Positions 1,695-49,701 of a stretch of 64,000 bases of DNA are shown here, in pieces. Source of the DNA: a virus (lineage: Duplodnaviria > Caudoviricetes). Location of the stretch: the IMG/VR virus record IMGVR_UViG_3300005841_000939, one strand, 5' to 3'. Numbering within the stretch: position 1 is the first letter of the stretch; each line of letters begins with the position of its first letter. The notes beneath the pieces are model-generated. The model was not told the DNA's origin and ran no database searches. It saw nothing but the letters and a program-made list of their open reading frames with translations. Position numbers and translations under genes: made by a program.

Positions 1695-3626
1695 TCACTT
1701 ATTAGCGTTGTTTCCTACTTGTCCTGCACCATTTATATATGTTATTCTATACTTTCCACATTTCTTTAAGTTTAATTGTGTACCTTTATCTTCTGCTGAA
1801 TTGATCGTCATAACATCAGCAATCACTTCAACTTTAGTAGTTGTATACAAATCAGTATCAGAAGTACCAACATCAACAAAAATTGTTTTTAATCTTTCAA
1901 ATGATTGCAATGAATCTGTGGTATCAATTGATGTTAAATAAGATTTTCCAGTTGATGAACCTGCATATATAATGCCATCAATTGACATAGTTGTGTAACG
2001 TTTTGCATTATCAGTTCCACTTTGATTTGCAACAAATTGTGCCAGTGTTTGTTCGCCATCTTTGCCAAGTGCATAATTACTTAGTGAACTTTGAACAGCA
2101 AACTTATCTTGGCGGTCAGAAACTGAAACAGTTAATGCACCAGCCGAATCTCCACGACTTGTATTCAAATTAAAATTATCTATTTTTCTGAAATAAGAGA
2201 AATTGTAATCAGCATTGCCAACATAAACTTCCATACTTGAAAGAACACCTGATTTTCCATATTCTTGATATTGGCGATAATCAGTTACGTTGAAATTTTT
2301 AAATCCGCCAACCATAACAGCAGCTTTATTACTATTTCCGCCTTGAAGATGGAATGAACGTTGAGTATTACCTTTTGGTTGACCATTACGTGAAAAACCT
2401 GAACCATTCCAAATTTCAATAGTATCAAGTATTGTTGGTTCATTTGTATCAGTTTTATTGATGCCACCAAAAACTAAACCACCTGCAATATCTCCATTTG
2501 CACCACCGAATGAACGATCAACGTTCAACATACCTAAACTATTACGATTAATTTCGGATTCAGTTGAACGCCAATTAATAGGATCAATTGTTCCCAACAA
2601 ACTTTGTTTGTTAGGATCATAATCAACATTTATTGATACTTGACCAGCAATTGCATGACTTATTTCTGTATCAGCAGGAGTTGAAGTTTGTGGTTCAGTA
2701 CATGTATCAACAACATAATTACCAACTTCACCAACTGTTTGTAAATTTGCAGTACTTGTCAAACCGCCAATCCAATTACTAATCAATGTATCAGTATAAA
2801 CTGATGAATTTTGTCCTGTTCTACCTTTTGATACGTCAAATACAACATCACTGGTCAAATCTTTAATTCTGATTGCCATTGCTGAATCAAGAGTATAAAA
2901 TTGACCAAAATAACGTCCTGGTTCAAATGTATAATTGACATCAAGCAAAATTTGAGCGATTTTTAACTTTTCAAATGGCTTTGTTGATAATTTCAAATCA
3001 GGAACAGTTACCCATCCACCTACTGTAAAATCAGTATCTGTAAAAAATCCACTATATTGCAATGGATTTGCAGAATATTTTTTAAATTCATCGTTTATAT
3101 ATTTGTCTATTGAAAAGAATGACAAACTTTCTTGTGGAACTTCAACATCATAACCACTAATATTTGGAACCTTAACATTTGCAAATTTTGTGTTATCTTC
3201 CAAGAAATCTGTTGAAACTCTTGCCGACCACCAAACGTTGCCAAATTTTGCAAGACGTTGGTATACCATAAAAGTATCAACATCTTTTACGAATTCAGCT
3301 AAATCTATTTTTTCTACATCAATATCTTGGAATGACAAAATTTGGTTGAAATCATCCCATAAAATATTTTTATCAGCATATTCAAATAAATCACGCAACA
3401 ATACTTCATTGATTTTTTCTGTAGACCCATCAACCAAAAAAGATTGCGATGTAAATTCATCCTGAAATCCCATTTCAGTTGCTGACATGCTAGGAACAAA
3501 TTGATGAAATAAATTCTTATAATTAGGAACGAAAATCTTGCAGTTAGCACTTTTTACAGTGAACTTGACGCCAGTGAATGCTTGATAAAATCCATTCCAG
3601 TTAATAGGTTGATCATTCAGATTCAT
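1695..3626 (-). CDS. Putative tail fibre/baseplate protein with Kelch-like repeats (643 aa)
   Basis: Long ORF in the baseplate cluster. Motifs LVFGG...IEIWNGSGF...RSFHLQGG...VMVGG resemble Kelch blades. Confidence 0.6.
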   Translation of the reverse strand: MNLNDQPINWNGFYQAFTGVKFTVKSANCKIFVPNYKNLFHQFVPSMSATEMGFQDEFTSQSFLVDGSTEKINEVLLRDLFEYADKNILWDDFNQILSFQDIDVEKIDLAEFVKDVDTFMVYQRLAKFGNVWWSARVSTDFLEDNTKFANVKVPNISGYDVEVPQESLSFFSIDKYINDEFKKYSANPLQYSGFFTDTDFTVGGWVTVPDLKLSTKPFEKLKIAQILLDVNYTFEPGRYFGQFYTLDSAMAIRIKDLTSDVVFDVSKGRTGQNSSVYTDTLISNWIGGLTSTANLQTVGEVGNYVVDTCTEPQTSTPADTEISHAIAGQVSINVDYDPNKQSLLGTIDPINWRSTESEINRNSLGMLNVDRSFGGANGDIAGGLVFGGINKTDTNEPTILDTIEIWNGSGFSRNGQPKGNTQRSFHLQGGNSNKAAVMVGGFKNFNVTDYRQYQEYGKSGVLSSMEVYVGNADYNFSYFRKIDNFNLNTSRGDSAGALTVSVSDRQDKFAVQSSLSNYALGKDGEQTLAQFVANQSGTDNAKRYTTMSIDGIIYAGSSTGKSYLTSIDTTDSLQSFERLKTIFVDVGTSDTDLYTTTKVEVIADVMTINSAEDKGTQLNLKKCGKYRITYINGAGQVGNNANK

Positions 3627-39163: not shown

Positions 39164-39171
39164 TATTTATA
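39164..39171 (-). promoter_or_regulatory. T4-type late promoter TATAAATA upstream of tape-measure-like A
   Basis: Exact motif 8 nt before the ATG. Confidence 0.75.
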
Positions 39172-40990: not shown

Positions 40991-42952
40991 TTATCCACGA
41001 ATAACAACTTCTGAGAAGTCAGTACCAGTCGCAACGTTAGTGAATGTCAACTTGATGAATTCAGCAACCTTAGTTGGTTTGACCAAGATTTCTGCATACA
41101 ATTCATTTGAATCAATTGCTTCTGGTGAGTTATTAGTTTCATCACAAACAACCAAATAGTCATAGACGCCACGGCGAGCTTTGATATCTGCCAAGAATGG
41201 TGTTACGATTCCACGGAAACGTGTTCTTGTGAAATCATCGTTGAACTCAAACAACATATAGCGAGCCATTTTGTTGATTGATTTTTCCAAGTGCAAGAAT
41301 AAGCGACGTACGTTGATACGATCAAATGCTGATGCTTTTGCTTGAAGAGTCTTTTGACCGAAGATAACAATTCCTTCACCTTGGAATTTAACGATTGGAT
41401 TGATTCTATTGTAGTAAAGAACATCGCGTTGTGCTTTGTTTGGATTTACTGCAACGTCAACAACGTTACTGATGATACCACGGTTCAAACCTGCTGGTGC
41501 AAACCATTGTGCATCATTGAAATCAGTGAATGCCATAACAGCAGCACAATAGCCTGATGCTGGAACCCAACGATAAACTTCAGCAAATCTGTCAAAAATC
41601 TTGAAGTAGTTGCCGTAGATTGCTGAATAAGATGAATTGATGTTCAAGATATTTGAAACATAATTCTTCATACTCAAGAATGATTGTGCAACTGGACGAT
41701 AATTTGCAGGATTTAAAATGTATTGCAATGGAACGTTCAAAATAGCGAAGCAGTCACGACGAACTGTACTTGCCAATTGATCAATATATTGTTTAACAAC
41801 ATCATTGTAATCAGGGTCAAGTAACAAATCAACTTCAACATCTTCTGTTGATGAGAATTGAGTTTCCCATTGTGTGAGAATTTCACCAGTCAAATCGTTG
41901 AGACTTGAACCTGGAACATCACCAGTAAGGGGATCTGCACCACCAAGATAGGTCTTGCGTGTTGAAACGAGTGTTACGCCTGATGCGCCTTCTTCATCTC
42001 CACCAATGAAGAAATAGATGTATTGATCATTATCATTGACCAATTTTGGTCCAAAGATCATGTTTCCAATAGCATCGCGCTTTTCTGGATCATTTGAGAA
42101 CACATATTGATTTGTAACGTTATCAAATTCATCAAAAACAATCAATGCAGCTTCATCAGGAGTATCAGGACCATGTTCAAATGCAGTGACAATGTTCAAC
42201 ATTTCACGATTAACAAACCATGCAGTTGAAGGAGCAACTGGTGGTGTCAAAACTTCGTACTTGATCAATGAGTTTGAAAGATAATCAACTGCACTTGTTG
42301 CAGTTGTTCCTGGGGTACCATTGTAATATTTGTCAGCGATAATGTTGACAGCTTGTTGAGTGGTTGCACCAGCCAATTCTGCCTTCATTTCTTGAAGGAG
42401 TGCAAAGTCTTCACTATTTACGACGAGAACTGAAATATCATCATAATATGGGCCTGGACCAACACCATAGAAGTGATACAAATCTTCGGTATACAAATTG
42501 TTTGCTGGGTTATCCAATTCACCAGCACCAGTTCCTGGAGGAAGAGTGTAATCCTTCTTTGCTTCGTGTGATTTGATGTCATCGTATGACAATGGGAACA
42601 ATTCAGTTGGCTTTGTAGTTACATCATCCAAAACGATGTTACCGAGTCCACTTGCACTAATACCGATTGTTACGCCAGCAACTTTCTTTGTTTTGTCTTC
42701 AACGCGAACAGCGTACAATTGATTAGATTGCTTTAAAAACGCTTCGGCAGTAAACCAGTGAGTGTAATTTGTGTTGTTTGGTCTGCCAAGGATAGTTTCC
42801 AAATCACTTGGATTGGTGAGCAAGATACGCTTGTTCACTGGACCTTTGACCGAATGCATGACGATGGCACCAACAGCACTTGTGACAGATGGGATAACTT
42901 GTTGGGTATCGCGCTCTGTAAAAGTTACGGCAGGAGAAAGATTTGTAGGCAT
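40991..42952 (-). CDS. gp18: Tail sheath protein
   Basis: LSPAVTFTERD...KGPVN...WFAPAGLNRG...RDVLYYNRINPI...FDRINVRRLF...FEFNDDFTR. Confidence 0.97.
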   Translation of the reverse strand: MPTNLSPAVTFTERDTQQVIPSVTSAVGAIVMHSVKGPVNKRILLTNPSDLETILGRPNNTNYTHWFTAEAFLKQSNQLYAVRVEDKTKKVAGVTIGISASGLGNIVLDDVTTKPTELFPLSYDDIKSHEAKKDYTLPPGTGAGELDNPANNLYTEDLYHFYGVGPGPYYDDISVLVVNSEDFALLQEMKAELAGATTQQAVNIIADKYYNGTPGTTATSAVDYLSNSLIKYEVLTPPVAPSTAWFVNREMLNIVTAFEHGPDTPDEAALIVFDEFDNVTNQYVFSNDPEKRDAIGNMIFGPKLVNDNDQYIYFFIGGDEEGASGVTLVSTRKTYLGGADPLTGDVPGSSLNDLTGEILTQWETQFSSTEDVEVDLLLDPDYNDVVKQYIDQLASTVRRDCFAILNVPLQYILNPANYRPVAQSFLSMKNYVSNILNINSSYSAIYGNYFKIFDRFAEVYRWVPASGYCAAVMAFTDFNDAQWFAPAGLNRGIISNVVDVAVNPNKAQRDVLYYNRINPIVKFQGEGIVIFGQKTLQAKASAFDRINVRRLFLHLEKSINKMARYMLFEFNDDFTRTRFRGIVTPFLADIKARRGVYDYLVVCDETNNSPEAIDSNELYAEILVKPTKVAEFIKLTFTNVATGTDFSEVVIRG

Positions 42953-42995
42953 CTTGATTAGTTCCTTCTCTAATTGAAAGCAAAGTTGCTATTCT

Positions 42996-43003
42996 TATTT
43001 ATA
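42996..43003 (-). promoter_or_regulatory. T4-type late promoter TATAAATA upstream of gp18
   Basis: Exact intergenic motif. Confidence 0.75.
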
Positions 43004-43031
43004 AGGAAAATAACCAATGATACCCTAACTG

Positions 43032-44639
43032 TTAATATCGCAGATTATTCCATTCATCTTGCTCAAGCCAATTCTCAGGATTTGATTTTCTATCAGCTTC
43101 AAAGAACCCCTCAATAGCGTCAGCAGCTTCAGAATTACTCAATTCTCCACTTTCAAGAACATCATGAACATTATTTAGATCGCCAAACTTCCAAGTACTA
43201 CGTTCATCTGCATAATAAGTTGATGCCATGAAATACGCTGCCCACATGCAAGTTATTACACAGTCATCGTGTAAGTTCTTACCAGTTTTAGCTTTAAATA
43301 CTCCAGGAGAAACTTCTTCAAAGATACCAATTTCATCAATTGTCAAACTATCTTTCAATATGATAGTTCCACCTTCTAATTGTTCTTTAAACTTCAATGC
43401 AGCAATTGGTTTTGATTTTTTGGTAGAAAATACACCATATGCCCCATCATTTTCCATGTCCATGAAGATATTTTCATATTCAAAATCATTGAAAAGACGA
43501 CTTATAACTTCATTTGAAAGTCCGTTTACTTCACCAATAACATAAGCATTGTTCCAATATTCGCATGTCTCATGAACAACAGCAGCAAATTCATTGGGAG
43601 GAGTTCTGTTATTGACCCATATAGCAACTTGAACTGCATTACCTTCAGTTATATCAAAAATATTCATAACTGAGTTATCTGAACCAACTCCACCAGAAGT
43701 ATCTATGGCTACAAGATATTTTCTTCCAGGAATAGACTTTACCCAAATCTTTGTTGAATCATCGGGTTGAAATTCTGGTTCAACATATTTCAACTTATTA
43801 ATTATAAAGTCAGCATCAATCAACGTAACAGTAGATCCTTGGAATTGATTGCCATATTCTTGAGCAAATTTAATCTTTCCAATATTTCTAATTGTTTCTT
43901 CTTTCCATGCTTCATCGCGTCCTGGAACTTCATGCCAGTCAACTTTAACAGGATAAAAAGTATTTCTCTTATCAATTGCATCTTTCCAAATCTTGTAATA
44001 TAAGTTACCTGTACCATTTGGTGTAGAAACGATGATAGCACGTCCACCAGTTGAAAGAGTTGGATAATTTGATGTCCAGAAAGGATCAGCAATATTTGAT
44101 GGAACGAATGCAAATTCGTCAGAAAGCAATAATGAGATAGACTCGCCACGAAGCGCATCAGTACTTGTAGCTTTAGCAAAAATCTTCGTACCATTATCAA
44201 AAGTAATTGAGAAAGCATTGTATTCAACAACTCCAGGCTTCATGTAGGCAGGCATTTGCTCATATGCAAATTTTATATCTGCTAAAATACTCTTTGCAGT
44301 ATCGGCTTTGTTAGCGAGAATTGCTAAAGTTTTGTCCTTATTGAACATAGCAAACCATAAAAAGTAAATACAACAAATAGTTGTTTTACCAATTTGACGC
44401 GCAGAGAGAACAACACAGAAACGATTTTCTTCAAAAGCTTTCAACATTCTTTTTTGATAATCGCGCAAATCAATAAGCTGTGCACCTGTAACTGGATTGA
44501 CAATATAGAAAAAGTTTTGAGCAAAAAACATGATGTCTCTTGCAGCTTGAGCAAAATTCATTACCATTGTTTGATCAAACTGGATTGTTTGATTAGGTCG
44601 TTTTACTGAACTATTTTTATCGTCATATTTAATTGTCAT
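43032..44639 (-). CDS. gp17: Terminase large subunit
   Basis: YQ adenine motif, Walker A ARQIGKT, Walker B LLSDEFAF, STPNG, nuclease AIDTSGG...D and HDDCV. Confidence 0.96.
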   Translation of the reverse strand: MTIKYDDKNSSVKRPNQTIQFDQTMVMNFAQAARDIMFFAQNFFYIVNPVTGAQLIDLRDYQKRMLKAFEENRFCVVLSARQIGKTTICCIYFLWFAMFNKDKTLAILANKADTAKSILADIKFAYEQMPAYMKPGVVEYNAFSITFDNGTKIFAKATSTDALRGESISLLLSDEFAFVPSNIADPFWTSNYPTLSTGGRAIIVSTPNGTGNLYYKIWKDAIDKRNTFYPVKVDWHEVPGRDEAWKEETIRNIGKIKFAQEYGNQFQGSTVTLIDADFIINKLKYVEPEFQPDDSTKIWVKSIPGRKYLVAIDTSGGVGSDNSVMNIFDITEGNAVQVAIWVNNRTPPNEFAAVVHETCEYWNNAYVIGEVNGLSNEVISRLFNDFEYENIFMDMENDGAYGVFSTKKSKPIAALKFKEQLEGGTIILKDSLTIDEIGIFEEVSPGVFKAKTGKNLHDDCVITCMWAAYFMASTYYADERSTWKFGDLNNVHDVLESGELSNSEAADAIEGFFEADRKSNPENWLEQDEWNNLRY

Positions 44640-45295
44640 GATTTATCCGAATCAGATGGAACAAATAAAACTGGTGTTAATAACAACTGCCCATCAATTG
44701 CTTTTTTAAAATATTCTCTGAAAATATCATTTCTTTTACTTGATGAATTTATATGTATTTGAAAAGCATTTGATGCATATACTGGAGGATATATTGACAT
44801 AAAAAAATCATTCATCATTGTTTTTTCACCATAACTAAAATCATCAGAAACTAATAAACTCACTGATATTCCTCTACAAACATTTGATGTAGTTCGTGAA
44901 AAAACAATAACACTACCTGTTCCTTCAAAAACAATTTTTCCCTTATTACATATGACGAGAGGTGGCTTTAACCATTCTGGTATTGATTCATATGCATTTT
45001 TAATTATTTCAAAGTTTTCGGATATAGTGTATTCTTTAGGAGATACCATAAAAACAACTTTATTTTCATGAAATAATGCGTACCATAATGAAAAAATACA
45101 GGTAATTAGAGTTATTCCACATGGTTTTAAAGTATCAATGATACAACTATTTCTATTTTGAAAATCCAACAGCATTTCTTTTTGTTCATTTGTCAAAACA
45201 ATAGGTGAAGACATATATGATAAACGAAAGAAATTTTCTGCAAAAAATATCACATCAGTAGATGCATTTTTGTAGTATTCTTCACGTTCCATCAT
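44636..45295 (-). CDS. Degenerate terminase-ATPase-domain paralog (219 aa)
   Basis: Colinear with the gp17 N-terminal domain (FFAENFF, WYALF, AYESIPEWLKP, RGISVSLLVSDDF) but Walker A reads KPCGIT. Confidence 0.8.
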   Translation of the reverse strand: MMEREEYYKNASTDVIFFAENFFRLSYMSSPIVLTNEQKEMLLDFQNRNSCIIDTLKPCGITLITCIFSLWYALFHENKVVFMVSPKEYTISENFEIIKNAYESIPEWLKPPLVICNKGKIVFEGTGSVIVFSRTTSNVCRGISVSLLVSDDFSYGEKTMMNDFFMSIYPPVYASNAFQIHINSSSKRNDIFREYFKKAIDGQLLLTPVLFVPSDSDKS

Positions 45296-45900
45296 GGATC
45301 CTTTTTATCTTTATCGTCTGGATCTTCACGTATAACAACATCTTGTGCTTGTTCTTCTCTTCTCGCATTGCCACCAATAATATCCTTCTTCATCAACAAT
45401 TCCATCAAATCATTCGTTGATCCAACCATTAAAATATTATTATTTCCATGCATAACTGGCTGACCAGCAGACATTTCCAATGCTTGTTTTTTCAAGTCAA
45501 TCTTTTCACGCTCAAAACCAATTTTAGCATTATAAACCTTAATTTGATTCATATTTGAAATTAAACTATTGATTGCTGAAATCATACTTGCAGCAGTTTC
45601 AACATCTCGGCCTCTTGGTGATCCTTCAATTTCTAATTGCAATGCATTTAACATTGACATACCTTGACCAACCATTTGCTTGATTACAGTATTCATATAA
45701 TCATCTGTTGTTGGTAAGTCATCTAATTGTTTTAATTTTTCTTTAAATGCTTTTACTTGTGCTTGACGTTCTTCAATTAAACGCAATTCGCGTTCTGCCT
45801 CTTGATCATCAAACGCAGTTGAAGAATCAATATTTAAAATATCTTCTAATTTCTTGAAAGATTTACTTTGTTTCTTCTTTTCATCATCTTCATTTGACAT
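45292..45900 (-). CDS. gp16: Terminase small subunit
   Basis: Helical; PRGRDVETAASMI and NNNILMVGSTNDLMELL; located between gp15 and gp17. Confidence 0.75.
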   Translation of the reverse strand: MSNEDDEKKKQSKSFKKLEDILNIDSSTAFDDQEAERELRLIEERQAQVKAFKEKLKQLDDLPTTDDYMNTVIKQMVGQGMSMLNALQLEIEGSPRGRDVETAASMISAINSLISNMNQIKVYNAKIGFEREKIDLKKQALEMSAGQPVMHGNNNILMVGSTNDLMELLMKKDIIGGNARREEQAQDVVIREDPDDKDKKDP

Positions 45901-45906
45901 AAACCC

Positions 45907-47022
45907 TCAATCTGGATATGATTCGTTCGGTATCAATTGAACTGAACCAATCGGTAAACCGTCTCCAGTAAAATGTTGTAATAAACTAATTATAGACACA
46001 ATATTGTTTTCATTCATAAACTCTTGCCAATAATGTGAAATTATCTTTGTTTCTTGATCAACAATAACGCGTGGATTTTTCAACACTGGACCTTGACAAG
46101 ATGAAATCCCTGGAGTAGTTGAATCATAAACTGGCTCTGGTGGTGTTACATCACCACAACTATTATCAACACATTGCTGATAGCCAGGAACCATTGCTTC
46201 GTTTGCTTCTTTCCAAAACTTGATCATTTGGTTGTAACCATCTACATCATCAAAATCAAAACCTTTTATTTTTGGTAAAACTGCAAACTCATTAGAAACG
46301 ACATCAGATTCTGGCTCATATATTATTAATTTTGAACCTTCAAATGGAACTTTTCTACATGGAACATTATTGATAGTAATACGTGAACATAAAATATCTG
46401 GTGTCAATTCCATTGGCTTGAACATTGTAGCTTCAACAATAAAAGTAAAATTCCATTGTAATATTCTGCGTTCATTTTCGCCATATTCGTAAAAATGGTT
46501 TTGATTTACGCCTTGCATCGTTACTTTAGCTTTGTGTTCTAATCCAAAATTTCTTTCTTTATATGAAATAAAAACTTGCGGTGCAAAGAATGGAAGAATA
46601 TTTTCAACTATTTGATAACCATCTTCTGCATATTTTGCCCAAACAGAAACTTCAAAAGTCAAATCATATGGAATAGGATTTAAGTCTGTTTGTTTTACTC
46701 TCTTACCTTTATCTGTTTCGTATTCAACATTTAAAAGTCTTTTATCATATTTACCAGCTTGACGATCAGGTGCCCAATTTATTCCACTATTAACAATTGA
46801 AATGCGAGGTAAATAATTATCAACTTGTGGATCAACATCATTTACTGAGCCTTTTTGTAAAATTGCAGCTATTTTTTCTTTTGGTTGCAATCCACATGCC
46901 ACTGGTTTTGCTCCTACTATTTCTCCATCTTTAGAATAAACACGGGTTGACATTCCAGTAAACATTTCACTGAAAGCGGCAACAACCGTGTATATTGAAC
47001 GTGGATAAAAGTAAGATTTCAT
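45907..47022 (-). CDS. gp15: Tail sheath stabiliser/terminator
   Basis: YFY...VAAFSEMF...LPRISI...PIPYDLTFEVSVWAKYAEDGYQIVENILPFF. Confidence 0.92.
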   Translation of the reverse strand: MKSYFYPRSIYTVVAAFSEMFTGMSTRVYSKDGEIVGAKPVACGLQPKEKIAAILQKGSVNDVDPQVDNYLPRISIVNSGINWAPDRQAGKYDKRLLNVEYETDKGKRVKQTDLNPIPYDLTFEVSVWAKYAEDGYQIVENILPFFAPQVFISYKERNFGLEHKAKVTMQGVNQNHFYEYGENERRILQWNFTFIVEATMFKPMELTPDILCSRITINNVPCRKVPFEGSKLIIYEPESDVVSNEFAVLPKIKGFDFDDVDGYNQMIKFWKEANEAMVPGYQQCVDNSCGDVTPPEPVYDSTTPGISSCQGPVLKNPRVIVDQETKIISHYWQEFMNENNIVSIISLLQHFTGDGLPIGSVQLIPNESYPD

Positions 47023-47025
47023 GAA

Positions 47026-47406
47026 TTATTCTGGAACAACTTCCTGATCAGCAGTTCCATCCTTATTTGCTTGTGTTTTGTAATAATCAAAAAGTGCTTT
47101 ACGCTTATCTGCTGGCAATCCACCATTTAACTCAATCATATCAGGTGTGAAAATATCAATTTTCTTTCCATGTTGATCAAAAACGTTCAATTCTTCTTCG
47201 TCCTTTTCAACAACAACTTTATAAACATTTCCATCTGAACCGGTGTAGATGAATTCGGATGTGTCTTCTTCCTCTTCTGTAATTGGGGGCGGAGCAACTT
47301 GAGTATCTGTTGTGATTGGTGCTGGTTCATTTGCTGGAGCCGCCAAGGTAAATGGGTTTGTATTCTCAAAGATTTTTTTCATTTCTCTACGTAATTCGTC
47401 TAACAT
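47026..47406 (-). CDS. Acidic hypothetical protein (126 aa)
   Basis: ORF between gp14 and gp15; no family recognised. Confidence 0.7.
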   Translation of the reverse strand: MLDELRREMKKIFENTNPFTLAAPANEPAPITTDTQVAPPPITEEEEDTSEFIYTGSDGNVYKVVVEKDEEELNVFDQHGKKIDIFTPDMIELNGGLPADKRKALFDYYKTQANKDGTADQEVVPE

Positions 47407-47422
47407 GTTTTTCCTTTAATGT

Positions 47423-48421
47423 TTACCAATCGCCCCACAGGGAACGTTTATCTGGTATGGTTCTTCCGTTTGGTCCATATTTTTCATGCGCTGGTGATCC
47501 CTCAGGTGTTACGATACTGGTTTGTGGATCAACAACTTCTTTATCAACAATGTCAACCTTTTGATTATCCGCAGTTTTACTGCCATCTTTAGTATCTGGA
47601 ACGATGTATTTACTATTAACTCTACCATCACCTAAAAGAATATCTGGTGGGATAGATCCATCACTTGGTCCTGGTGGACTTGCAGTTGTGAAGAATTCTG
47701 TTGCTGCTGCGCCAGTTATTCCTGGTGTTCCAGCGAATAAAGGATCATCATTTTGCATCAACTCTTCTGATGTTGGAGTTGGAAGAATGAATTGTGGATT
47801 ACCTTTATATTTTTCATCAATATCTTTATCAGGAATTGCACCATATTGCTCACCAGTACCAACGCCGGCATCTGAAACAATACGAACTTTTCCAGTAACC
47901 TTATACCAAAACTTATAACCAAATTGTTGAGCTTTCGCATCTAAGAAGTGCAATCCACCCTCAGTTACCTCATACACCAATCCGTTGTGCGGAGTCATCA
48001 ATAAGTCATTTGCAACTGGACCGAAGCCACCTCTACGATTTGAATTATTTGGTTCAGGTGTCTTCAACGAACGATTACCAACCGCTTTATCAAAAGTTCC
48101 ACGATGGAAATATAAAGTTATTTCATCTTCGCTTTGGCGACCAAACGCAGTGTAAAGTAAAACTTCTGGTGTCCATGTATCAAGCATGGCTTTCATAATG
48201 AAACGACGATCCCATTTAGGTTTACTATTATCACCTAAGATTACATCTTGATTATCTGCATAATCATCAATGTTTAAGGTATAATATTCAACTGGAATAC
48301 CTTTAATCGCGGCCAATTCAGCCATCATACGATCATAGGTTTCTTTTTCACGACTACAAGGATCGGAACTAAATTGTGTCCAATACTTGTCGTAACTAAA
48401 TGGATCAGACAAACCAGCCAT
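47423..48421 (-). CDS. gp14: Neck protein (head closure)
   Basis: GIPVEYY...QDVILGD...FGRQSEDEITL...NDLLMTP...YEV; follows gp13. Confidence 0.8.
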   Translation of the reverse strand: MAGLSDPFSYDKYWTQFSSDPCSREKETYDRMMAELAAIKGIPVEYYTLNIDDYADNQDVILGDNSKPKWDRRFIMKAMLDTWTPEVLLYTAFGRQSEDEITLYFHRGTFDKAVGNRSLKTPEPNNSNRRGGFGPVANDLLMTPHNGLVYEVTEGGLHFLDAKAQQFGYKFWYKVTGKVRIVSDAGVGTGEQYGAIPDKDIDEKYKGNPQFILPTPTSEELMQNDDPLFAGTPGITGAAATEFFTTASPPGPSDGSIPPDILLGDGRVNSKYIVPDTKDGSKTADNQKVDIVDKEVVDPQTSIVTPEGSPAHEKYGPNGRTIPDKRSLWGDW

Positions 48422-48427
48422 AATCCA

Positions 48428-48435
48428 TATTTATA
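48428..48435 (-). promoter_or_regulatory. T4-type late promoter TATAAATA upstream of gp14
   Basis: Exact motif 6 nt before the ATG. Confidence 0.75.
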
Positions 48436-48441
48436 TGTTTA

Positions 48442-49701
48442 TCAGCCCGTAAAGAAGTCTGGTGGTTCAGAATACATATGATCATCAACAATTTGCTTCT
48501 CAATTTTCTCTCTCAAAGCATCACCACGATTCAAATACAACTCACCATTAAATGAACTTCCATCAGGGAAAGTCATGTTTTGATATTTTGAACCATTCAT
48601 ACCAACTTGGATCATTGCATGTGCATATGCCAATTCACGCACTGCTTGATGATTATACATTTTTTCATCAGCAACACGACGATAGCACGACATAGCCATA
48701 ACACCTTTTGATGATGGTGGAGGACTAATGCGAACTGTATGGTCAAGAGGACTGAAATAAGCCATCATTTTTGTTGTGAACAATGTACGATACATTTCCA
48801 ATGTTTGCATGCCCATAAACCAAGAAACGATGTCTACGGAACCAATACCGCCCCCAATCCATGAACCCCAACGATTATCAAATGATGTTGATGAATTCAT
48901 AAATCCATAACTTCCGCCAGCTTGGAATAAACCACCTAATGGAGCAAAAAGCACATTATCTTCATTATTACCATAACCACCAAACATACCTTTGTATAAG
49001 GTATCAGTGATTGCTATGACATCTGTTGGAACTGTGTAAATTGTTTTGAAAACATAACCATTTTGTTGAGGTTTTACTGATGTGTCACCTTCTGTCCAGA
49101 AAGGTCCAATTGCTTGCGGATCATATTTCATCTTATCAGTAAAGCAGTGATCAGCAGGAATGTTATCACCGCACCAACTTGGACCAGGATCTGTTTCACA
49201 TGGGCAAAGATTGCCGGCAGCATCCAAATATGGATAAGTATGACCATCTGAATGTGCAGTGTCATAAGGTAATGTACATGTTGAAAGCATTGATGGATTA
49301 AAATCAGTGGAACATTTATTATCATTCCCACCCATACCATCAACAACAATTGTTGGACCATTAAACCCAGGAAGTGGTCTGGACATTGGCGTTCCTGTCA
49401 TACCAGGAGTACCAGTTGTTCCTGTAGTTCCAGAAGTACCTGGAGTTACGTGACGCCATTTTCCACCAGTTGGTCCTGGTTGACAAACTTTTCCAGTGCC
49501 ATCGTAATAAAGCAATTCTGGACAAATTGCGATCATTGATTCAACATTACCAATTCCACCGGCATGTTCGCCGAAGAAATCGCATGCATGATCAATACAG
49601 TCATCAATTTGTGTTGTATCAATTAAAACGTCAATGACGGGTTGGCCAAGTCTACGACGGATCCAATTAGCAAGTTCACGTTTTTTCTGATATGGACGCA
49701 T
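48442..49701 (-). CDS. gp13: Neck protein (head-tail adaptor) with Cys/Gly/Thr-rich insertion
   Basis: WIRRRLGQPVIDV...QIDDCIDHACDFF and C-terminal QVGMNGSKY..FPDGSSFNGE. Confidence 0.9.
   Translation of the reverse strand: MRPYQKKRELANWIRRRLGQPVIDVLIDTTQIDDCIDHACDFFGEHAGGIGNVESMIAICPELLYYDGTGKVCQPGPTGGKWRHVTPGTSGTTGTTGTPGMTGTPMSRPLPGFNGPTIVVDGMGGNDNKCSTDFNPSMLSTCTLPYDTAHSDGHTYPYLDAAGNLCPCETDPGPSWCGDNIPADHCFTDKMKYDPQAIGPFWTEGDTSVKPQQNGYVFKTIYTVPTDVIAITDTLYKGMFGGYGNNEDNVLFAPLGGLFQAGGSYGFMNSSTSFDNRWGSWIGGGIGSVDIVSWFMGMQTLEMYRTLFTTKMMAYFSPLDHTVRISPPPSSKGVMAMSCYRRVADEKMYNHQAVRELAYAHAMIQVGMNGSKYQNMTFPDGSSFNGELYLNRGDALREKIEKQIVDDHMYSEPPDFFTG

Follow-up and report, generated by a model that had tools for sequence, protein, structure and literature searches.

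Why should a phage whose large terminase gene is complete carry, immediately upstream of it, a second and apparently inactive copy of the terminase ATPase domain? The question is raised by a 64,000-nucleotide stretch of DNA (hereafter the window) from the IMG/VR record IMGVR_UViG_3300005841_000939, the whole record being 262,529 bp long, rated 97% complete and assigned to an uncultured T4-like soil phage. On the minus strand of the window, between the gene at the gp16 position, which resembles a small terminase subunit (TerS), and the gene for the gp17-like large subunit (TerL), lies an open reading frame (ORF) of 219 codons at 44636-45295. BLASTP, phmmer and structure prediction characterise its product as a paralogue of TerL comprising the ATPase domain only, and predicted to be catalytically disabled. 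The motors that package viral DNA are conventionally pictured as rings of identical TerL subunits under the control of TerS. The explanation we favour, with a probability of about 0.4, is that the paralogue is a terminase-associated, non-catalytic binding partner with a regulatory role.

The relationship to TerL was assessed in several ways. Against the window's own TerL, BLASTP aligned paralogue residues 8-209 with TerL 29-231 (31% identity, 208 columns, two small gaps, E 8e-32); this confirms the sequence-only reading of the locus, which had described the ORF as colinear with the gp17 ATPase domain. In a phmmer search of the PDB, residues 4-208 aligned with T4 gp17 106-310. Among PHROG families only those of TerL were matched (phrog_5989 at 2.6e-31), with no TerS family, and PADLOC and NCBIfam searches produced no matches. 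The neighbouring TerL (43032-44639, minus strand; 535 residues) is complete, as had been claimed, with Terminase_6N and Terminase_6C, intact RQIGKT, SDEF and STPNG motifs, and a nuclease domain. No such domain is present in the paralogue, again as first described: it ends at about TerL residue 231 and has no Terminase_6C (PF17289) match, its single Pfam hit being to Terminase_6N at 11.6 bits, below the gathering cut-off of 22. Thus, although it shares fold and colinearity with the T4 gp17 ATPase domain (PF03237; PDB codes 2O0H, 2O0J, 3CPE and 3EZK), it differs in the absence of subdomain II beyond about residue 310, as well as of the nuclease domain.

The motif substitutions initially reported are all present: NEQ stands for DYQ, KPCGIT for RQIGKT, SDDF for SDEF and INSSSK for VSTPNG. 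According to the phmmer alignment, paralogue residues E37, Q38, K57, P58 and I61 correspond to gp17 Y142, Q143, R162, Q163 and K166, while D151, D152 and N183-S185 correspond to D255, E256 and T285-T287. Retained are Q143 (Q38), G165 (G60), T167 (T62) and D255 (D151), together with the Arg-Gly loop ahead of Walker B (paralogue residues R141-G142); Y142, R162, Q163, K166 and E256 are replaced by Glu, Lys, Pro, Ile and Asp, respectively. The Walker A Lys and the catalytic Glu are thereby lost, and both the Arg-Gln pair of the P-loop and the C-motif, which reads NSS or SSS according to alignment, are altered. For comparison, a live class of 126 TerL N-terminal domains was defined by the presence of Lys at K166; here position 256 is Glu in 124 and position 162 Arg in 125. 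In T4, K166, E256 and R162 are essential, and substitutions of K166, and even E256D, abolish gp17 function. As judged from these positions, the paralogue is predicted to be incapable of hydrolysing ATP by the terminase mechanism.

Despite these changes, the gp17-type ASCE/RecA-like ATPase fold is predicted to be retained. AlphaFold2 with an alignment yielded a model with a predicted local distance difference test score (pLDDT) of 94 and a predicted template modelling score (pTM) of 0.91, whose best Foldseek matches were the T4 gp17 ATPase structures 2O0J and 2O0H (TMq 0.88, root mean square deviation 2.3 Å, E 1e-16); the solved Avs3-terminase complex 8DGC was also among the fold matches. An alignment-free ESM Atlas model reached a pTM of 0.87, while single-sequence AlphaFold2 was uninformative (pLDDT 38). 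A prediction of the complex between the paralogue and its own full-length TerL, both with alignments, scored 0.02, a value that is not evidence either way.

The reading frame has the properties of a real gene. It contains no internal stop, and at its composition, for which the expected stop frequency is 0.087 per codon, the probability of 217 open codons is around 2.5e-9; none of 20,000 shuffles stayed open, and the other five frames have 5-28 stops. Simulated neutral substitution, with the colinear stretch of TerL as starting sequence and even with indels ignored, had introduced a stop in 382 of 400 runs once identity had fallen to 80%, and in all 400 once it had reached 60%. The frame is therefore open neither by chance nor after neutral decay and, since simulated decay closes it early, selection would have kept it open for most of its divergence. 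The earlier description as a retained pseudo-ATPase holds to this extent: the open frame and preserved fold point to an intact, retained and disabled copy of the ATPase domain rather than to a fragment of a broken gp17. The three roles then suggested for it, as motor regulator, as spacer or adaptor in the ring, or as decoy for Avs-type sensors, are conjectural. Public copies of the paralogue are identical only, in five contigs from rhizosphere metagenomes. Four rhizosphere DNA runs contain the locus, the contigs of two being identical across the paralogue, and a variant strain covers gp16 only; no RNA dataset containing the locus is listed.

Reading the junctions base by base bore out the proposed ATGA overlaps on both sides: the TGA stop of the gp16-like gene (45294-45292) overlaps the paralogue's ATG (45295-45293), and the paralogue's own TGA (44638-44636) overlaps the TerL ATG (44639-44637). 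The upstream partner, a gene of 202 codons at 45292-45900 on the minus strand, has a weak PHROG match to the small terminase family phrog_445 (E 1.4e-4). The paralogue begins with two tandem ATG codons, of which public gene callers took the second (218 residues, P0001; the 219-residue form is P0002), and a Shine-Dalgarno-like AAGGA at 45299-45303, minus strand, stands 3 nt ahead of the first and 6 nt ahead of the second. A motif scan located a T4-type late-promoter-like TATAAATA at 48428-48435 (minus strand), upstream of a 332-residue ORF, as the sole such motif upstream of the gene run that ends with gp15, gp16, the paralogue and TerL. The next one, at 42996-43003 on the same strand, lies between the TerL stop and the start of the sheath gene, and is likely to mark the downstream limit of the paralogue's transcription unit. 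Since no further promoter motif was found between 48435 and 43003, and no terminator-like site on the minus strand from 42500 to 48500, the paralogue is probably co-transcribed late with both terminase genes.

The window as a whole has 13 matches to this T4 late-promoter consensus where 6.75 would be expected, 12 of the 13 being on the gene strand and mostly just 5' of ORF starts (for example, 39164-39171). This distribution suggests T4-like late transcription in the phage.

How widespread is the gene? In the closest relative as measured by TerL (locus L003, 74% identical), the end of gp16 overlaps the start of gp17 directly, and in the next (L004/L052, 58%) the two are likewise joined, in each case with no paralogue; orthologues of the window's gp16-like gene occupy the same position in L003 and L004. 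A word-index search of 5.8 billion 90%-identity clusters returned the paralogue itself only, and in an exhaustive phmmer search of 1.84 billion 50%-identity representatives nothing but itself fell below 1e-30. An IMG/VR pattern scan revealed no orthologue, tblastn against cultured phages found real TerLs only, at around 30% identity, and a JGI metagenome scan for closer phage relatives via TerL uncovered nothing nearer than the 58% type. Loss in relatives had been named at the outset as something that would count against a retained function, and it was encountered in part, as absence from the two nearest relatives with no orthologue found. The motor of this phage lineage thus does not depend on the paralogue, which is an accessory gene and was probably gained, a single gain in the window's lineage being most parsimonious.

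The source of that gain was sought among related sequences. The best raw identities among the 1.84 billion representatives, 36-38%, are to TerLs of the paralogue's own broad clade. In quick trees it falls, on a very long branch, among the inactive copies from other phages described below. Constrained trees fit about equally when it was placed in the broader clade of its own TerL (log-likelihood, lnL, +26.6) or with a clade of nine inactive copies (lnL +25.3). Similarly, profiles did not discriminate, at 159.8 bits for the inactive copies vs 167.0 bits for live TerL. Constraining all 28 inactive copies to one clade cost 70 units (lnL -70, approximately unbiased test p-AU 0.077), so that a single origin for all of them is doubtful but not rejected.

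These inactive copies show that the window's gene is one of a kind already repeated elsewhere. About 21 short proteins among the 150 best exhaustive matches share the loss of Lys from Walker A, and six more emerged from a profile search; in all, some 28 short TerL N-domain proteins, the window's included, are without both Walker A Lys and catalytic Glu. At least eight phage lineages besides that of the window have a copy in the terminase operon, as a rule with terL immediately following it. The copy is on the same strand as an intact terL, and just ahead of it or overlapping it, in L023, L035, L038, L041, L042, L046-L049 and L067. The arrangements vary: the order is TerS, inactive copy, TerL in L035-L037, and inactive copy, TerS, TerL in L040; the copy overlaps TerL by 38 nt in L041, L046, L047 and L048; in L042/L043, a 368-kb phage contig, it overlaps TerL in L042; and in L038/L039 it again lies in the terminase operon, being followed in L038 by a TerL split by an HNH gene. 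Two further copies upstream of terL, in L023 and L067, came from about 51 loci fetched via the window's TerL, a sample unbiased towards paralogues. One cultured phage is represented, Xanthomonas phage Xoo-sp13 (L049, MN047793.1), whose copy at 2741-3436 (QDJ96428.1, locus tag Xoosp13_242) matches the TerL family phrog_5989 at 4e-28, has the Walker A sequence RESGTS and is 26% identical to the metagenomic copy P0076. Its label of 'terminase small subunit' is, on this sequence evidence, probably positional and wrong.

Like the paralogue, the other copies (for example QDJ96428.1 and the metagenomic P0076, P0104, P0145, P0031 and P0037) consist of the ATPase domain only, have a hydrophobic residue instead of Lys and Asp or Asn instead of Glu, lie on the same strand just before terL, often overlapping it, occupy long branches in the tree and evolve fast. 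Position 166 is occupied in the 27 other copies by Leu, Ile, Met, Val, Asn or Ser, the first four accounting for 20, and E256 has become Asn or Asp in 22. Q143, R162, G165 and S285 are each kept in 26 and Q163 in 21; the arginine of the Arg-Gly loop is kept in 20, with Lys in four more. In the lineage with comparable DNA, identity is 91-97% among the TerLs but 70-73% among the inactive copies, the latter with omega values of 0.15-0.44 vs 0.02-0.04 for the adjacent TerL. The copies of this lineage are constrained, but evolve around ten times faster than TerL. The paralogue is no more than 34% identical to any of them and differs in its surroundings too, being flanked by the two terminase subunit genes within a T4-like core order, whereas the jumbo-phage copies lie beside a Gp23-like gene.

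The literature searched contained no paper on inactive terminase paralogues. The only trace was a mention, unaccompanied by analysis, of two tandem TerL homologues and no TerS in the Xanthomonas jumbo phages XaC1 and XbC2 (PMC11273794).

How might such a protein act? The ORF is a real protein-coding gene, and its product a single free RecA-like domain related to the gp17 ATPase of T4. Synthesis is probably late, from a transcript shared with the genes for both terminase subunits and with translation coupled to both. As we envisage it, the paralogue would work by binding, not by catalysis, through its structural resemblance to the ATPase domain of TerL. The likeliest partner would be terminase itself, either TerL, through the ATPase-ATPase interface of the ring, where the conserved Arg-Gly loop before Walker B is kept, or TerS, or both. 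In this manner it could tune assembly or activity of the holoenzyme as an optional regulatory subunit, by a logic resembling that of the clamp-loader delta-prime subunit. There too the fold and a candidate trans-acting arginine are kept without hydrolysis by the subunit itself, although the comparison is one of analogy, the two proteins having no sequence relationship and the paralogue being a putative member of a TerL oligomer. The Arg-Gly loop region matches in position R139 of P74-26, a confirmed trans-acting finger, and T4 also has an arginine there (PMC5727402). We favour a regulatory role because the position in the operon does not vary, translation appears coupled to that of the terminase subunits and the Arg-Gly loop has been kept; recurrence in the terminase operons of other phages and purifying selection in the one lineage with comparable DNA count in its favour as well. 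Gripping DNA is an unlikely function, since the paralogue is acidic, with an isoelectric point (pI) of 5.3, where TerL N-domains (pI 8.8 for that of its own TerL) and the other inactive copies are basic.

Several observations weigh against this regulatory role. Expression, binding, partner and effect on packaging have been deduced rather than observed, and the identity of the trans-acting arginine of T4-type terminases lacks experimental confirmation (PMC5727402). With gp16 abutting gp17 in the two nearest relatives, and no orthologue in the protein sets searched, packaging in the lineage evidently works without the paralogue. It is also a more degenerate protein than the other inactive copies, having lost R162 (now Lys) and Q163 (now Pro), with a C-terminus some 15-35 residues shorter and a pI far from their median of 8.9. 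Finally, its GC content (27.7%) and GC at third codon positions (GC3, 15%) are at the 5th percentile among the ORFs of the genome, low values that fit a foreign origin or the relaxed constraint of an accessory gene.

Some of these same features would be expected if the paralogue were directed at the host rather than at the motor. Avs1-4 recognise terminase and portal folds by direct binding (PMC13581612), and a co-produced imitation of the TerL ATPase face might occupy or mislead STAND sensors of the Avs1-3 type, so that the sensor meets a harmless copy. The accessory profile of an arms-race gene is there (an orphan, absent from the closest relatives, low in GC), as are the roughly tenfold faster amino-acid change under continued purifying selection in the comparable lineage, the retention by most inactive copies of the nucleotide-pocket residues with loss of only the two catalytic ones, and the presence of the Avs3-terminase complex 8DGC among the fold matches. 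Yet close mimicry ought to set the sensor off, not block it, and with R162K, Q163P, Y142E and the loss of the whole nuclease domain the paralogue would imitate the full TerL surface poorly. No anti-Avs protein of this kind is known in the literature searched, and the strict terminase-operon placement across lineages is equally explained by a packaging role. We consider such a counter-defence function rather unlikely, though worth retaining in mind.

A less eventful history is that the ORF is a non-functional by-product, part of a terL gene duplicated at this locus in the course of recombination, gene replacement or the movement of homing endonucleases, its frame surviving simply because little time has passed since that event or since function was lost. 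Mobile elements do have a hot spot in the 5' portion of terL in relatives, as seen in the intein-like insert of L004/L052, the HNH gene inside terL of L038, the homing endonuclease after the inactive copy in L034 and the P-loop intein junctions in 11 of the top 150 matches; moreover, the paralogue is the shortest and most degenerate inactive copy, and is absent from the nearest relatives. A recent event is, however, hard to reconcile with at most 38% identity to any TerL among the 1.84 billion representatives and with several replaced invariant catalytic residues, in a frame that has no stop and only two small gaps relative to TerL when simulated neutral decay closes it long before such divergence. 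The confident prediction of the fold even without an alignment and the exact ATGA junctions on both sides argue in the same direction, making a by-product improbable. Still more so, to the point of being barely credible, is a nucleotide-dependent enzyme or switch that binds or slowly hydrolyses ATP non-canonically as a second motor or regulatory NTPase. While it could draw on the adenine-binding Gln (Q38, equivalent to Q143), G60, T62 and the Walker B Asp (D151), it has Ile for the Walker A Lys, Lys-Pro for the Arg-Gln of the P-loop and Asp for the catalytic Glu, changes to be set beside the T4 mutants in which K166 substitutions or E256D were sufficient to abolish function.

A regulatory, non-catalytic partner of terminase consequently remains our preferred account of the window's gene. 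A wider proposal, made with more reserve and at less than even odds, is that the terminase cassette of T4-like and jumbo phages has a recurrent and so far unreported third member, the inactive ATPase-only TerL copy, which would serve either as a non-catalytic subunit assembling with TerL (in some phages at the place of TerS) or as a TerL mimic aimed at host sensors, and of which the window's gene would be a recently acquired and strongly diverged example. Were this so, a selected but inactive TerL domain within the terminase operon would bring a hitherto overlooked factor into a machine familiar from textbooks, as a regulatory pseudo-subunit or as a decoy in terminase-based immune sensing, and such domains would have arisen or spread repeatedly in unrelated large phages. 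There are practical consequences too, since in current annotation these genes go by 'terminase large subunit', 'terminase small subunit' or simply 'hypothetical', labels that can mislead terminase-based phylogeny and the prediction of packaging strategy. An experimental system is at hand in the cultured phage Xoo-sp13.

Some further observations concern the inactive copies elsewhere. One of them, P0026 (L033:5001-5792, with GIT and DDF motifs), is exceptional in standing alone on the opposite strand among unknown genes, with no terL beside it. In the jumbo-phage lineage the gene adjoining the inactive copy is Gp23-like, of the major-head-protein family (L041:2564-3877, L046:2665-3909, L047:350-1711, L048:1297-2682 and L049:1519-2661). 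It too is fast-evolving, being 55% identical where TerL is 97% identical, with omega of 0.28-0.43, and may be a second diverging paralogue of a conserved structural protein at the same locus. Matches in Stenotrophomonas phage RAS14 and Pseudomonas phage pf16 turned out to be ordinary TerL genes, and in XacN1 and Phosso the ORFs that precede terL bear no relation to the inactive copies.

Insertions into terL itself were also encountered. At L004:2132-5434, and in L052, the gene is interrupted exactly at the GK|T of Walker A by an intein-like element that begins ...SGK|CQSF and ends ...VSHN|TTT, and that is in turn split by a free-standing ORF of 378 residues with sub-threshold matches to C2H2 zinc fingers. 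The element looks like a split intein carrying an inserted, presumed homing-endonuclease gene. Eleven long TerL homologues without the Lys among the top 150 matches (P0062, P0079, P0086, P0087, P0105, P0110, P0121, P0136, P0142, P0143 and P0151) have at the P-loop the HN-T or HN-S sequence of an intein's C-terminal junction. Inteins seem to insert often at the codons that specify Walker A in T4-type terL.

The wider surroundings of the paralogue in the window follow the T4-like core gene order on the minus strand, namely gp15-like gene, gp16-position gene, the 219-codon ORF, TerL and gp18-like sheath. The gp15-like tail sheath stabiliser (45907-47022, minus strand; 371 residues; PF16724 at 2.5e-31) is the upstream neighbour in the same gene run, and the gp18-like tail sheath protein (40991-42952, minus strand; 653 residues; PF04984 and PF17482) the downstream one. 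Outside the window, at around 200-240 kb of the same record, lies a stretch of about 40 kb with a GC content of 43-47%, where the record elsewhere is mostly 32-38%, falling to 28-30% at 180-200 kb. This stretch could be an acquired region or an assembly chimera.

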